A stretch of 22,875 nucleotides of DNA, taken from a virus. The stretch is from UHGV virus genome UHGV-0065784; one strand, written 5' to 3'. The notes below the pieces were generated by a model, which worked only from the letters and a program-made list of their open reading frames with translations, searched no databases and was not told where the DNA came from. The position numbers and the translations under genes were made by a program. Shown piece by piece: positions 2,706 to 9,096 of the stretch (position 1 is its first letter; every line of letters starts with the position of its first letter).

Positions 2706-5651
2706 TTAGTGCTTCCCTTCTATTAAGTCTAACCTAGCTTTTATTCTTTCTATTTCTCTGCGCTGCCATGCCGCCTCGATATAGAATAAGAGATCAGGTC
2801 TGACCCCCCATCTAGATCCTGCTGGCGTTATTTCAACGCGCTCAATGATGTCTTCCATTACCATCACTGGATTATCATCCTCATCAACAATGATGCTCCC
2901 GTCATTATCAGTCAGCGGCATTTCCCTTTGGCCAGTAATGACGTCATCATATACTGCGGGATAATCGTCATAGCAAAGAAAGGCATAGCGGCATGTTGTG
3001 CTTTCTTCTTCCATGAGTCCGTGAGAAATAAGAACATCACGAAGTTGCTGCGCGATTACACCATGATGTATCCTCGCCCCTTCTTCCCCCTTTATAGCGA
3101 CAGCGTTCAGCCATTTATAAGCGATATACCTGACGTCACCCCAGGCATCCAGCAATGCTTCGTCAGGAGAGACCGGCTCTGTCTTTAATGTTCCGTCACT
3201 GGTAATCACAGGATTGGAGCCAAGATAAACTGTCGAGAACCTGTTTCCCGGACCACCAAGAGCATTTACATTATCAAGATAAGGTTTAACATCTCCGTTC
3301 TCAAAAAGATGTTCGAGTGCGTTATATACCGCGCGACGTGGAGTACTGCTTCCGGAACCATGCAACGTTATCATTGCACCATCTGCTGAAGACGTTGTTT
3401 CACCTCCGCTAACGATTAATCTCTGAGCGGTAACATCATCAGACGGTACTTTCTTCGCAATAATGGCGTAATTACCCTCAAGTTTGACTTCCGCGCGAAC
3501 TTGTCCTGATGTACCTGCATGGACAGTCAGTGACTGGACGGCAACATCATCTGTGAAATCAACGGGTACAGGAACCGTCCTCACGCCTGACGTCGACATA
3601 AAAGTAGGAAGCGTTCTGTTAGGAGTGGCTCCGTAGACAAAATCCCTTGAAACAAATTCTTCCTGTTTAATTTTCACCCTGAAACAATACAAATCAGCCG
3701 GGTGACCATCGTGAACATAAGGATATTTTCTGTTGTTATCCCCTATGCTCCATGGGTTTAGAAAGTCTTCCCCACCGAAAATGTAGTACAGCCAGTTGTC
3801 TTTGATACAAACTGAACCAACACCAACCGCAGAGTTAACTATTCCGCCCTGATAAATCTGATCAGTAACATTAACCCACTCTACATTATCCAGACTCCAC
3901 TCATTGACGTTAACTCTGGTCATAAATGTTCTTGGATAATTTCCTGCATAACGGTTATCAGGTTCTCCTCCTTCCCACTCACCAAATGCGCGCTCACTGC
4001 CAAAAATAATCAGCTCATCGCCAACTTTGGCAAAAGGAAGGTTTGAGTGATGAACATTATTTGGGAAGCGAAGAGAATTCCATGATGTACCTAAATCAGA
4101 GCTTCTGTGCAATGAACTACCGGGTTGAGTACTTAATGTCCCCCTGGTCGTCAGATACAGAATGCCATCATAATATTTTACACATGGCTCAGATGCATTC
4201 GCCTCATATTCTACAGGTATGCGTCTGCGAACAAAGCTACCAGGAGAACCGAAAGCATCAGAGAAATAGAGTATCCCAAGCTCGCGTGGATCAATATCAC
4301 CATTATGGTAGCCAACAGCAAAACTGTTATCGCTAATCGTCGCAAAACTGTGAATCTCAGTAACAGGAGTGCTTCCGTCAACAAAAGAAGGAATAGTTCC
4401 AAGACTGGTTTTTCTCCATGGTGACGAGTGAAATGATGTACCAAAACTCCAGTATCTACCCTCGTTATTCTGATCCACATCCTGGGTATTTTGCGTCGTA
4501 ACTGTAAAAGTATTTTTATCAATAACAGTAGTCACCGTCATATTCCCGGTAACACCTGTAACACCAGAGTTTGAGAAGTTGACAAAATCACCAGCAAATA
4601 ATCCGTGATCAGTAATGCGAATATAAGCGACTTGCTGATTTGCTGCTTTCGTTATACCACCATAAACGCGAAGGCTGCGACTCATTGGGCGATCCCACAA
4701 CTCTGCAACCTGCAGTTTATTTCCGCTCACGGTCCGCGTCTCAATTACAGCAAAAAGGCGATTTCTGACAACCCCCATACTCATGCAGTGATAGTTAACT
4801 GTGGGATAGTTTTCATGTAAATCTGTAAGCCATTCCGGCGTTGTCCAGGTCTTCCCGTCATCTCCTGAGCGAACCCATGCAACATGGAGGTTATTTACAC
4901 CATGGCGGTCTCCAGCCATAAAAGGCGCATAGATGACATTGTCATATACAAACGTTTTATCCTGCGTCCAGGCGTTGTACCACGGTGTATCTGTAATTTT
5001 AAATAACTCTCCCTGGATAAAATCTTCAGAAGCATAAAAAAGAGGCTGACCCGGTATTCTCTCAAATAAAAAACGAGCATTTTTAAATCGACTGACATCT
5101 GGAAGAGTTGATACTTTAAAAGTAAGCCCTCGCCCATCTATCTTTTCACCACCTGTTGCAACAGAAAGTAATTCTGATAGAGCTGATGTGTCATCATGAA
5201 CACCATCACCAATAGCCCCCCAACCTCTTACATCATAACTGTCTCTCCATCTTGCTATCTGAAGTTTTGGGTATTTATTCGCTCCATCTGGGTCTTCTAA
5301 TTGCTGCCGTAACTGATCAGGATCATACTTCAGCACATTAGGAAAATAGAACTGCTGCGCACCATACGCATCATAAACAGCCATAGAATGGCCTTGCACG
5401 GTAACGAATTTGGCAATCTGTCCGTTATATACCGGATATCCAGCAGCGTTAATGATTATTGGTTGCGAAACAGGAATGTGAGAACCGTCTTCGTTCTCTA
5501 CATAAACCTGAATCTGGTTTTCAGGATTTACCGGGTCAGTGTCAATTTTACCGATATAAATTTTGCCATTGGCTACGGCTTTAAAAGAACGCGCCATAGT
5601 GAAGAGTTGCGAAGGCATACTCACTACAACATTGGCTGTAATGTCTGTCAT
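2706..5651 (-). CDS. Tailspike: P22-like N-terminal particle-binding domain, sialidase-like (Asp-box) receptor-degrading domain, C-terminal intramolecular chaperone (S74-type) domain; probable endosialidase
   Basis: 981-aa ORF; N-terminus [43 protein letters not shown]... closely resembles the P22 gp9 head-binding domain; Asp-box motifs SGDDGKTW and SSDLGTSW; C-terminal ~150 aa resemble self-cleaving chaperone domains of endosialidase-type tailspikes; GGAG RBS 8 nt before ATG. Confidence 0.85.
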
Positions 5652-5719
5652 TTAATTTGCTCCAGATACAAGGAATCGCCGCAGCATTGCCACAGTGATG
5701 CATTATTAATCAAACAAAG

Positions 5720-5734
5720 AGACCACTGTGGTCT
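5720..5734. promoter_or_regulatory. 15-bp palindrome AGACCACTGTGGTCT, candidate Mnt-type operator in the mnt/tailspike divergent region
   Basis: Perfect inverted repeat around a single central base, sitting between the divergent starts of mnt (5798) and tailspike (5651); similar in style to the P22 mnt operator as I remember it (GGTCCACGGTGGACC). Confidence 0.55.
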
Positions 5735-5797
5735 TATTGAGGATGCAACCAGCAGATAATAAGATGCCGATCCACTCACAAAAGCGAGGCATCAAGA

Positions 5798-6049
5798 ATG
5801 GGAAGAGATGACCCGCAATTTAATCTGCGGCTACCTTACGAATTAAAGGAAAAACTAAAACAGCGAGCCAAATCCAATGGCCGCTCTCTTAATTCAGAAT
5901 TAGTTCAGATAGTGACTGATGCTGTATCAAAGCCATCCAAAATTTCAGGCTATCGAGACGATGCGGAACGCATCGCTGATGAGCAGTCAGAGCTTGTTAA
6001 GAAGATGGTGTTTGATACGCTGAAGGATTTGTACAAAAAACCCACCTGA
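5798..6049 (+). CDS. mnt: Mnt-like ribbon-helix-helix repressor
   Basis: 83-aa ORF MGRDDPQFNLRLPYELKEKLKQRAKSNGRSLNSELVQIV...DEQSELVKKMVFDTLKDLYKKPT, highly similar to P22 Mnt from memory; GAGG RBS; divergent from the late genes as in P22. Confidence 0.9.
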   Translation: MGRDDPQFNLRLPYELKEKLKQRAKSNGRSLNSELVQIVTDAVSKPSKISGYRDDAERIADEQSELVKKMVFDTLKDLYKKPT

Positions 6050-6066
6050 AGGTGGGTTAATTTTTG
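6041..6066 (+). terminator. Rho-independent terminator overlapping the mnt stop codon
   Basis: cccacc-tgaa-ggtggg stem flanked by an A-run upstream and ttaatttttg downstream. Confidence 0.5.
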
Positions 6067-6148
6067 CATTTACCTGGGCCATATTGACTACTTATAAAAT
6101 GAGATCAATATTTAATCGCCCAATAACGGGTGTATGTTGAGGTATATC

Positions 6149-6328
6149 ATGGCGAAAAAACCAGGTGAAAACACAGGAAAAAACGGCGGAATATACCAAG
6201 AAGTTGGCCCACGCGGCGGTAAGAAAGACAATTTTGCAACCGTCAAGGACAACGAAAGGCTTCCACCAACAACAAAGCCAGGTCATGGCTGGGTATTGGA
6301 TAAGCGAACTCCAGACAGCAAAAAGTAA
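6149..6328 (+). CDS. Small conserved phage protein (59 aa), YjzC-like by motif
   Basis: ATG at 6149 with GAGG 7 nt upstream and a TTGACT -35-like hexamer at 6085-6090; peptide MAKKPGENTGKNGGIYQEVGPRGGKKDNFATVKDNERLPPTTKPGHGWVL... resembles a small-protein family I recall as YjzC-like; the ORF-track start at 6134 is probably a 5-codon over-extension. Confidence 0.6.
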   Translation: MAKKPGENTGKNGGIYQEVGPRGGKKDNFATVKDNERLPPTTKPGHGWVLDKRTPDSKK

Positions 6329-6335
6329 TAATCAA

Positions 6336-6356
6336 GCCGGGTCACTCCGGCTTTTT
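6336..6356. terminator. Putative bidirectional terminator between convergent genes
   Basis: gccgg-gtcact-ccggc stem followed by TTTTT on plus strand and AT-rich on the other side; overlaps the last codons of the minus-strand gene. Confidence 0.45.
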
Positions 6357-6707
6357 GATATGTCGCTCGCAGAACTCAACAAGCCTGCTCATTAAGTAGC
6401 AGTAAGTCTCGTTGGCTCTTCCTGGTTCAACATCAACACCTACCCTTGAGCAGATATCGAATGCCATGTGAGCGCACTCATGGGCAATAGTAGATAGTTT
6501 GCCATTGAACACGCCTATCACATGCAAAACACCATTCTCGCTACTCATTGTATGAGACGCTCCGTTGGCGTCCGAGTCATGCACGTCAACGCCAAGTTTT
6601 TGATGCAGGCGTTGCCATTCTGGAAAGTCTCTACAAAACACAATTGTACCGCTCTCAAAGAGCGGAACGAGCATCTTTGGTACGTTTCCAATGTTAACTT
6701 TTTTCAT
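6342..6707 (-). CDS. Small HExxH protein, possible ImmA/IrrE-like (M78-type) mini metallopeptidase
   Basis: 121-aa ORF with AGGA 4 nt before ATG; motif HECAH followed about 20 residues later by [13 protein letters not shown], reminiscent of the HExxH...E-x-N-x-FA...LL signature of ImmA/IrrE peptidases; family assignment is from motif memory only. Confidence 0.6.
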
Positions 6708-6737
6708 GGTATCCTGCGCAAAACTAAGGAGGTTGGT

Positions 6738-7232
6738 GTGTCTGATTCTATGAGTTACGCTGTGCTAGTTGCCGCAACTCTATTTCTGGGGATAGGGTTG
6801 CAGATTGCGTGGTTCTTTTTTTCTAGTTTTATTAAACGTAAAAGAATTGAATCAAGGATATCTGAGATTTCTATTGCTATAGGGAAAAATGCTGAAAATC
6901 CAGAGAATGAGGCCTGCGCACTGAATTACCTTAAAGAAAAGTTTTCCCCTGAAAAATTTGAAAACAGAATTACTGATGCTCTTGGATTGGTAATATCAGT
7001 AATTCATATGCCACTAAGTTTGCTGATAACAGTGTGGTACTTCGCCATGATCGCCGGAAGAATATTTGGTTTCATGAATATAGAGCCTGTAGTTCTTTGG
7101 GTTCCAATGATACTGCAATTGTTGTTAAGCGTTGCTATCTTTATTTTTTCTGTTTTTATAAAAATTGTCTTCGGAAGATACCCCGGAGAAGCGAAGGGAT
7201 TTAATAAAGAATTCATAAAAACTATAAAATAA
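6738..7232 (+). CDS. Inner-membrane protein with three predicted TM helices at the sieA position of P22-like phages (candidate superinfection-exclusion protein)
   Basis: GTG start at 6738 preceded by AAGGAGG (6726-6732, 5-nt spacer); hydrophobic segments [75 protein letters not shown]; AT-rich; opposite orientation to late genes, between gp16 and mnt as sieA is in P22. No sequence match to SieA could be checked. Confidence 0.65.
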
Positions 7233-7254
7233 ATGCCGTCCTTGGCTTACAGTG

Positions 7255-9096
7255 CTACTGCCGGGTAGCTTCGTTAACTAAGAGCGGGCGCACGGCAGTA
7301 GCCGCCTGATTTAGCGCTCTTTCATAAGCTGGCGTTCCAGCTTTAGTGTTTGCCAGACGTAAGAGCGCATTCCTTGCTGCTTTGGATTCATACAAGCGCA
7401 TCATTGCACCGAAACCAGCCTCAAGCCCCATTGATACGCCAAGAGTCGTAGTTGCGCCAATCGTCCTTATCCTGTTGGCTTGCGATTGCCCCGTCTGAGT
7501 TACTACATTTGCGGTGTCTGATCTTGCTGCTTGCTGTAGAACTTCATGAAGAGCATCAAGTTCTTTCATGTGCTTTCCAGAAAAAATAGTGTTGTAAATT
7601 TCACCGCCTGACTGAGATTTCAGCTTATTAACTTCAGTGATGAACTTGGCTGGAGAGTCACCGGCCTTTTCCGCTATTTTGCTGACGTAAGCTGCACGCA
7701 TAGCATCTTTCCCTTTATCATCAAGTGCGCTCCAGATTCGTTTCACGTCAGATGGTTTTCTGCTTAATACAACGGTATTTATAAGTTCAGGACTGGCTTC
7801 ACTGCTTGCCTTGTTGAGCTTGTTAGCAATGTTTTTATTAAGCACCTTATTATAAACGTTTGCATAATCGGAATTTGCTTTAAGGTATTTTGCTGCGTCT
7901 GAAGCACCGAGGTTTTTGGCAACTGCGTTACGAAGGTCTTTTGACATTGCATTCTCTACCATATTGGTAGCTGCTTTTGCCTGGTTGGGGAAGACCATGG
8001 CATCTCCCTGAACATTAGATCTAAATGCTGTTCTGTGCTGGCGCAAGAGATCAAACGTAACATCCAAATCAGTTGCAGGGTTTGCTAATTCTTCACGTAG
8101 GTTACGCAAGGATGTAAGCAGGTTTTGATTGGCAGAAGTCCCAAGCCGTTCCTGTCTTGCGATCGCTGTATTCAGAGCATTCATGGTATTTGTGGTATCA
8201 ACTGCGGCATTACCCATTTTATTGGTGACGTCATTGATAACAGCGCCAGCGGCATCCTTCCGTCCCCTTAACGTGGTGGTCAGAGATCTCACCACATCAT
8301 CAGGGTTGTACTCACCAAAACGGTCAAAATAATTGCTTACCAGCTTACTACGCGTTGCATATTGCTCCGCTCGCTTTGAGCCTGTCCCGAGCAAAGCCCC
8401 CTCAGCATCTTGAGTAAGTCCGCGAGTGAAAGCATTTTTCGGCGGGATAACATCAGATGTCATTGGTGTCACGCCCATCGATTCTGATGTGGCAATTTTC
8501 TTTGCCACTTCTGGCGCAATATCACCTTTTATAGCCGTTATTCCACGCCCTATTCCCTTTGCTGCTGCGGAAAGAACACCCTGAGCGGCAAGGTTAACTC
8601 CGGCATTTTTAGCTGCATTTTGTGCGAAATCACCTTTCTGATTTGCGGCCTCTGCCAGTGATCCAATAGCCATGCTTCCTGCCGTTCCAACTCCTGGAAC
8701 TAAATACCCGCCAATTGTTTCTCCAGCTTGAGCGTAGGGGTCTGTCGGTCTGTCTACTGGACGATAAACATCATCCAAAACCTTGGGGCCACCAAGCCCC
8801 GGACTGATTGCATTAATCAGACTTGCGCCGCCCTGTAATACGTCAAATGGTATGTTTACCAGACCACGACCAGCCTGTTCTGCAATTTGCCCTGCACTTT
8901 GACCACCAGTGAGCCAATCGCCAGCTTGTTGCATCAATGATGGTTCTTCCCGTGTTGGTGCATTATTGGCCTGATTAACTGTTTGTTGCTGAACAGCCTG
9001 ACCAGCAAAATACTCATCAATGGCGGTGCCAATATCTTCCGTGCTCGTACCATCAGGGAAGGTAAATGTCTTACCGTTTGCAGTTACTTTCATCAT
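7255..9096 (-). CDS. Ejection (injection) protein, P22 gp16-like
   Basis: 613-aa ORF; N-terminus [30 protein letters not shown] resembles P22 gp16 from memory; last gene of the ejection-protein trio; 4-nt overlap with upstream gene. Confidence 0.8.

Follow-up and report, generated by a model that had tools for sequence, protein, structure and literature searches.

The segment between gene 16 and mnt of an Escherichia coli prophage most probably represents the sieA–hkcC–orf59a part of the P22 'ant moron'

Does the stretch between the last ejection gene and mnt of a P22-like prophage hold an accessory module of a new kind, or genes that phage P22 already carries? The question is raised by positions 6050-7254 of a 22,875-nucleotide stretch of DNA from the virus genome UHGV-0065784 (the whole stretch is hereafter called the window), which a sequence-only reading had described as an AT-rich island lying where P22 carries sieA, with three compact genes, including a divergent pair encoding a HExxH protein and a membrane protein, in a combination that it did not recognise as a named system. 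We found instead that the segment is already known, having been named and described in the literature, and is not a new island. Very probably, it is the sieA–hkcC–orf59a part of the immI-adjacent 'ant moron' of P22, located in a P22-like, CUS-3-type prophage of E. coli, with sieA, mnt plus orf59a, and hkcC as separate transcription units. The features on which this reading draws are listed here in order of position.

5798-6049, plus strand: mnt, Arc/Mnt-family ribbon-helix-helix repressor at the left border (Pfam Arc 2.8e-22, Repressor_Mnt 2.2e-18; 76% amino acid identity to P22 Mnt)
6039-6058, tail to about 6066, both strands: hairpin and T-run ('tMNT' of HK620), with an 8-bp perfect stem overlapping the mnt stop codon
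6084-6112, plus strand: predicted sigma-70-like promoter match, TTGACT-N17-AATATT, upstream of orf59a (consensus scan; sequence identical in P22)
6149-6328, plus strand: orf59a (HkcD of HK620), 59-aa basic protein of the YjzC family, predicted to be all-beta
6334-6353, tail to 6356, both strands: bidirectional intrinsic terminator (P22 'mnt terminator', HK620 'tORF59A'), common to orf59a and hkcC and overlapping the 3' end of hkcC
6342-6707, minus strand: hkcC, 121 aa and ~13.6 kDa, predicted minimal zincin with HECAH at residues 76-80, on the late-operon strand
6677-6707, plus strand: putative PsieA, transferred from the P22 annotation via alignment, inside codons 1-10 of hkcC
6738-7232, plus strand: sieA (type A), 164 aa from a GTG behind AAGGAGG, three-TM inner-membrane superinfection exclusion protein
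7255-9096, minus strand: gene 16 homologue, ejection/DNA transfer protein at the right border (75% amino acid identity to P22 gp16)

The identity of the locus was established by comparison with phage genomes. Megablast of positions 5650-7300 aligned 5951-7300 with positions 13268-14617 of P22 (BK000583) at 96.5% nucleotide identity over 1350 bp and also matched dozens of P22 relatives, and a pairwise alignment with P22 showed near-identical DNA from the middle of mnt through the end of gene 16. Order and orientation in BK000583 are identical to those in the window, running through mnt, orf59a, the 'mnt terminator', the sieA promoter, sieA (described there as 'superinfection exclusion of infection by other phages') and gene 16. 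The three open reading frames reported earlier were recovered at the same coordinates and on the same strands, as was the 164-aa product with three hydrophobic segments, but the view that they are other genes in the place where P22 carries sieA was mistaken, as P22 has exactly these open reading frames here. Nor is the combination a nameless one, since sieA, orf59a and mnt have annotations in P22, the record of HK620 has hkcC, HkcD and tORF59A, and the interval from gene 16 to gene 9 of P22-like phages has been termed the 'ant moron' (Villafane et al. 2008, PMC2629481). The AT-rich character proved to be restricted to sieA (35.6% GC) and the spacer between mnt and orf59a (35.4%), and does not extend to orf59a (46.7%) or hkcC (46.2%), which are close to the window mean (47.4%).

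The surroundings are those of a P22 relative. The virion module of the wider window is P22-like (gp20, gp7, coat and portal), and the sieA locus lies between the gene 16 homologue and the tailspike gene (gene 9 homologue, 2706-5651), whose product combines the head-binding domain of P22 with endosialidase domains, an architecture that points to a CUS-3-like, K1-specific prophage. The immI set is incomplete: only mnt was found by alignment with P22, with no counterpart of the P22 arc/ant/sar segment, and just 146 bp separate mnt from the start of the tailspike gene. A search of Rfam gave no RNA family within positions 5400-7500.

By its sequence, the 164-aa membrane protein is SieA of type A. 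It shares 92% amino acid identity with P22 SieA, the profile phrog_7745 ('SieA-like') matches residues 1-164 of 164 (E 7e-109), and RefSeq names the same protein in E. coli 'superinfection exclusion protein A'. Three hydrophobic segments were delimited by Kyte-Doolittle windows of at least 1.6, at about residues 5-32, 78-113 and 112-150, and the protein's length of 164 aa, its lack of an N-terminal extension and its three predicted TM segments agree with the published description of type A (PMC10883804). Its translation also contains a 13-residue match to FxRYPxEAxxFNK, a cytoplasmic motif near residues 145-157 that is conserved among SieA types (PMC10883804). In P22 as in the window, the sieA frame has no stop codon for some distance ahead of the GTG (here back to 6522), which yields a 236-aa plus-strand open reading frame (6522-7232) overlapping hkcC; this was considered as a longer SieA and rejected on the grounds of 2 synonymous vs 30 nonsynonymous polymorphisms upstream of 6738.

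The function of SieA has been studied experimentally in P22. When sieA was present as a single chromosomal copy preceded by no more than 85 bp of its upstream sequence, the plating of P22 dropped by at least 10^7-fold (Leavitt et al. 2024, PMC10883804), and the same construct reduced lysogenisation 10^5-fold and abolished K+ release (PMC10883804). P22 SieA was located exclusively in the inner membrane, with DNA entry blocked; escape required as many as three substitutions, which mapped to the C-terminal portions of gp16 and gp20; and the protein was active in E. coli (EV36, a K1 host), from which CUS-3 was excluded with an efficiency of 10^-8 or less (PMC10883804). Because the 85 bp that suffice hold only the first 18 codons of hkcC, both hkcC and orf59a are dispensable for exclusion. 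From the 92% identity to P22 SieA, we infer that the protein encoded here would likewise exclude P22-like phages. By the mechanism demonstrated for P22 SieA, it would, on its own, keep incoming P22-like phages from passing their DNA through the inner membrane, probably through interference with the gp20/gp16 ejection conduit.

These results bear directly on the proposal that the divergent HExxH and membrane genes form an unnamed accessory module that replaces sieA and act together in exclusion, abortive infection or anti-repression, a proposal that we now regard as very improbable. That the module replaces sieA is refuted, as the membrane gene is sieA itself. The geometry behind the proposal was reproduced, in that the hkcC ATG (6707) and the sieA GTG (6738) are 31 nt apart and the putative sieA promoter lies inside hkcC, so that transcription of the two genes could interfere, and the site is a known moron site (PMC2629481). 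However, the companion idea that each promoter lies within the other gene held for putative PsieA only, and a promoter for hkcC on the minus strand was not found. Superinfection exclusion was the right suggestion for the membrane protein, but SieA works alone with its 85 bp of upstream DNA (PMC10883804), and no Ant-like or Abi-like domain was found that would speak for abortive infection or anti-repression.

Gene content across related loci argues in the same direction. Among closely related viral contigs that keep hkcC (99-100% identity), type A sieA is present at only about 16 of 80, and in the other loci (about 64 of the 80) hkcC stands beside a ~160-aa lipoprotein, a Rap1a-like protein or small TM proteins at the divergent position of sieA; HK620 similarly has hkcC and hkcB and no sieA. 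Of 5426 complete E. coli genomes, 35 carry type A sieA and 132 the orf59a-hkcC block. A comparison across P22-like prophages had been suggested with the proposal, and it shows hkcC persisting where genes of unrelated kinds stand in for sieA; such swapping fits the published high-flux moron site and argues against the HExxH/membrane pair as one system. A search of PADLOC-DB 2.0 gave no match at E ≤1 for any of the four proteins, SieA not being among the models of that library.

How might the genes of the segment be transcribed? Terminator-like sites are abundant in the region (9 vs 1.6 expected from shuffles), and promoter-like sites are not enriched (2 found vs 3.3 expected). Both of the hairpin terminators noted earlier were found again, as hairpins followed by a T-run on both strands at 6039-6058 and 6334-6353, the P22 version of the former carrying two mismatches, and the -35-like TTGACT belongs to the promoter match at 6084-6112, one base off the position first given for it. 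For sieA, the promoter is termed 'putative' in the literature (PMC10883804), and our consensus scan did not pick up this position as promoter-like. The same scan revealed no minus-strand sigma-70-like site between gene 16 and hkcC, nor was any terminator-like site seen on the minus strand between 7255 and 6707, those listed being at or below 6353. In the arrangement that we propose, mnt and orf59a would be read rightwards in the lysogen, ending at the bidirectional terminator, and sieA would be transcribed separately, from the putative PsieA within the first codons of hkcC. As for hkcC, it shares its strand with the late operon, and neither a dedicated promoter nor a terminator after gene 16 was detected, which suggests that antiterminated late transcription, heading to the tailspike gene, most likely reads through hkcC and so expresses it, an expectation drawn from its orientation only.

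The status of hkcC itself deserves scrutiny, as the gene is left unannotated in BK000583, NC_002371 and AF527608 and faces the 236-aa sieA-frame open reading frame on the opposite strand in both the window and P22. One might therefore suppose that the 121-aa HExxH open reading frame is no gene and merely mirrors, in antisense, the sieA promoter region or the 236-aa frame. The pattern of polymorphism makes this hardly credible: among 37 distinct alleles out of 82 loci, we counted 29 synonymous vs 3 nonsynonymous changes in the hkcC frame, with 26 of the 28 variable positions at codon position 3, whereas the part of the sieA frame that precedes 6738 shows the 2 vs 30 already mentioned. Moreover, P22 carries an intact hkcC with one amino acid difference (99% identical), HK620 hkcC is 99.2% identical over 121 aa (tblastn; annotated there as 'unknown'), and full-length homologues down to 43% identity occur in Klebsiella, Rosenbergiella, Xenorhabdus, Proteus and Morganella, and more distant ones down to 23-43% retain invariant residues of catalytic type. 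The profile phrog_1365 matches HkcC (E 1.7e-39), the gene is annotated by HK620, PGAP and many phage records, and a profile run against 1.84 billion cluster representatives recovered 514 relatives, of which 142 had E ≤1e-10 and almost all were 110-130 aa long. We conclude that hkcC is a genuine gene that evolves under purifying selection, and the profile search places its product in a large uncharacterised family of ~120-aa proteins.

Conserved residues and predicted structure give hints at what HkcC may do. Across 40 members of the family (23-43% identity), only G49, H76, E77, H80 and E100 are invariant, so that the HExxH is followed by a Glu 20 residues past the second His, in an N-E context. 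We take this HExxH with a Glu at +20 in an N-E context to be gluzincin (thermolysin-type) spacing. The AF2 model is confident (pLDDT 89.3, pTM 0.83) and predicts a b-b-a-b-b sheet, the HExxH helix and a C-terminal helix, and Foldseek relates it, with TM scores of 0.7-0.8 and up to 0.82, to many uncharacterised small phage proteins, a few of them labelled SprT-like; its best fold matches to known structures are weak and include several zincins. Profile searches had been recommended for all three proteins, and they succeeded for SieA and with phrog_1365 and phrog_3202, but they assigned HkcC to no significant family in Pfam, NCBIfam or PADLOC, and searches of PDB sequences with HkcC-family profiles gave nothing significant, yielding active-site-helix matches to myroilysin/BMP1 only (E about 0.02). 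Matches of HkcC to lantibiotic proteins (E 0.026-0.14) were dismissed as noise around the HEC...C stretch. We regard HkcC as a soluble protein with a putative zinc site of gluzincin type, which would probably make it a small metallopeptidase or else a binding protein that depends on zinc.

We also considered an ImmA/IrrE (M78)-like role, in which HkcC would cleave Mnt. It was rejected on several counts: there was no Pfam or NCBIfam match to such proteins at E ≤1, the neighbours of hkcC are orf59a and sieA, Mnt is a ribbon-helix-helix protein, and hkcC is found without a Mnt or HTH neighbour in siphovirus contexts. The gene and its relatives are co-oriented with late genes in P22-like contexts and with tail genes in siphovirus prophages, and a paralogue, orf129 (38% identical), occurs in L/ST64T/epsilon34 in the late operon, after Rz/Rz1.

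The third gene, orf59a, is 98% identical in P22 and belongs, as judged from its homologues, to the very conserved YjzC family. The profile phrog_3202 matches its product (E 7e-31). The initial label of a YjzC-like small protein was upheld, as homologues (44-49% identity) carry PF14168 and UniRef names the close ones 'YjzC family protein', though the Pfam YjzC score of Orf59a itself (E 1.3e-3, 19.4 bits) falls under the gathering cut-off of 25, and Pfam, NCBIfam and PADLOC return no significant family for it. Orf59a has a pI of 9.9 and is modelled by AF2 as three strands (pLDDT 86.6), and a fold search with this model gave no informative match. Our literature search found no functional study of hkcC, orf59a or YjzC.

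Do hkcC and orf59a belong together? Their association across phages suggests a cassette, although each can do without the other. As a tail-to-tail pair whose 3' ends are separated by 20-43 nt, they have been kept in nine independent diverged contexts, where hkcC is 43-63% and orf59a 61-86% identical to the window proteins; among these are prophages of siphovirus type in Klebsiella and Rosenbergiella, together with a metagenomic contig, where the pair sits between tail tube/chaperone and tape measure genes, as well as a Xenorhabdus locus and P22-like prophages of Morganella and Proteus. The siphovirus-type prophages with the pair have neither sieA nor mnt nor gene 16. The two genes always lie on opposite strands, hkcC running along the late operon and orf59a against it, and the single exception to tail-to-tail pairing among the diverged contexts examined is a partial copy in Arsenophonus. 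Overall, orf59a is present at 79 of 93 hkcC loci.

These observations could be taken to mean that the two genes form a functional cassette that moves between phage types independently of sieA and mnt. We hold this to be possible but rather unlikely, as several facts weigh against it. A 74-aa membrane protein replaces orf59a at 10 of the 93 loci, orf59a occurs alone in Salmonella bongori prophages and environmental contigs, distant hkcC relatives (≤38% identity) never adjoin it, and PADLOC gives no match. In addition, the genes are only 13 nt apart, and because one terminator hairpin is common to both, block inheritance would be sufficient for their linkage. A more specific version of the idea seems to us improbable, namely that a late-expressed minimal gluzincin, HkcC, cleaves or is checked by a lysogen-expressed, ~6-kDa Orf59a, or that the pair confers a defence/counter-defence phenotype. 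If true, a coupled cassette would provide the first function for a pair of P22 genes listed as 'unknown' for over 20 years, and would also give a function to a family of small phage zincins comprising more than 500 clusters.

Under the reading that we prefer, that of the sieA–hkcC–orf59a part of the 'ant moron' with three separate transcription units, an identification that none of our results contradicts, the exclusion function of the locus is already explained by SieA alone. There nevertheless remain, in P22, one of the best-studied phages, two conserved genes at this place without an assigned function, one of which, hkcC, is missing from the curated record. It offers a well-defined target in a very tractable system, and the question that it poses is genuine but modest.

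Set against known systems, HkcC resembles the gluzincins in its invariant HExxH and downstream Glu, and may do so in its predicted arrangement of beta-sheet, active-site helix and C-terminal helix, but differs from gluzincins and SprT-like zincins in having no significant Pfam or PDB sequence match and in consisting of 121 aa with no other domain. HK620 (AF335538, Clark et al. 2001) likewise carries HkcD (= orf59a) as the convergent partner of hkcC, with the bidirectional terminator in the matching place between genes 16 and 9. Its record runs from gene 16 through hkcB (-), hkcC (+), the 'bidirectional terminator; tORF59A' and a possible HkcD, which it calls 'similar to Bacteriophage P22', to gene 9, before which mnt and ant survive as remnants only; unlike the window, it has hkcB in place of sieA on the divergent side. 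P22 is the closest counterpart, with the same genes, order, orientations, terminator and putative promoter, and with SieA, Orf59a and HkcC 92%, 98% and 99% identical, respectively. The window departs from P22 in its host (E. coli instead of Salmonella), in the missing arc, ant and sar, which leaves mnt abutting the tailspike gene, in the N-terminal half of Mnt and its operator-like palindrome, in gp16 (75% identical) and in its endosialidase tailspike. The window presents a version of the same variable, independently expressed gene set that is inserted in the late operon between gene 16 and the tailspike gene and has been described as the 'ant moron' (PMC2629481); its version has mnt but neither arc nor ant, which is not the arrangement of P22 itself.

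The reading frame of the superinfection exclusion gene sieA remains open upstream of its start codon in both the window and P22, which yields a 236-aa ORF:

6522-6737, + strand, upstream extension of the sieA frame, 72 open codons before the GTG start

A longer SieA made from this ORF was considered and rejected, as polymorphisms in the sieA frame of the extension comprised 2 synonymous versus 30 nonsynonymous changes. We therefore conclude that the extension is an antisense shadow of hkcC, the gene of the predicted HExxH zincin. The position divergent from hkcC, held by sieA in the window, is occupied by other genes in other P22-like prophages (coordinates internal to each locus):

L021-L026, about 3481-4017
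L010, 209-562
L100, 3662-4015
L016, 3634-4017
L041, 3641-3970

The types found there include an ~160-aa lipoprotein (lipobox LLAGC), a Rap1a-family protein, and small single-TM coiled-coil proteins, and these substitutes may represent alternative genes for exclusion or immunity.

The most diverged pair of hkcC and orf59a (the YjzC-family gene) was found on a metagenomic contig, L006, at 43% and 61% identity, respectively, where the gene adjoining the pair encodes a second putative phage metallopeptidase:

L006 1330-1968, PF18894 "PhageMetallopep" protein, 212 aa

More distant members of the hkcC family, in unrelated phages, repeatedly lie directly downstream of a lysis cassette (Rz/Rz1, lysozyme R, or endolysin plus TM proteins), and in N4-like phages a member is located in the early region. 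The distant members include:

L110 2501-2890, phage L orf129
L112 3001-3585, mEp044
L115 3007-3276, Aeromonas phage Lolek

As judged from its domain make-up, the tailspike marks the prophage as CUS-3-like and specific for the K1 (polysialic acid) capsule, because it joins the P22 head-binding domain to endosialidase domains:

2706-5651, - strand, tailspike; P22 head-binding domain plus endosialidase N-terminal, beta-propeller, beta-barrel, and chaperone domains

Immediately past the tailspike end of the prophage are two further genes:

370-1500, - strand, IS605-family OrfB/TnpB (Cas12f-like TNB domain)
1609-2085, + strand, PEBP family

Two features around the repressor gene mnt differ from their P22 counterparts:

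6039-6058, hairpin over the mnt stop codon (P22 locus L001, about 1589-1608)
5720-5734, perfect palindrome AGACCACTGTGGTCT, in the spacer (5652-5797) between the tailspike start and mnt

The hairpin has a perfect 8-bp stem in the window, whereas three substitutions in the aligned P22 counterpart leave two mismatches; read-through from mnt into orf59a may thus be weaker than in P22, and orf59a may depend more on the TTGACT-N17-AATATT site (6084-6112). The palindrome occupies the place equivalent to the P22 mnt operator, AGGTCCACCGTGGACCT, with a different half-site, and Mnt itself (76% identical overall) differs from the P22 protein in its N-terminal, DNA-reading part, including Gln instead of His at position 6. 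Unlike P22, the window contains no arc, ant, sar, or arc operator. Together, these differences suggest that Mnt may be the direct regulator of a promoter whose transcripts run into the tailspike gene.
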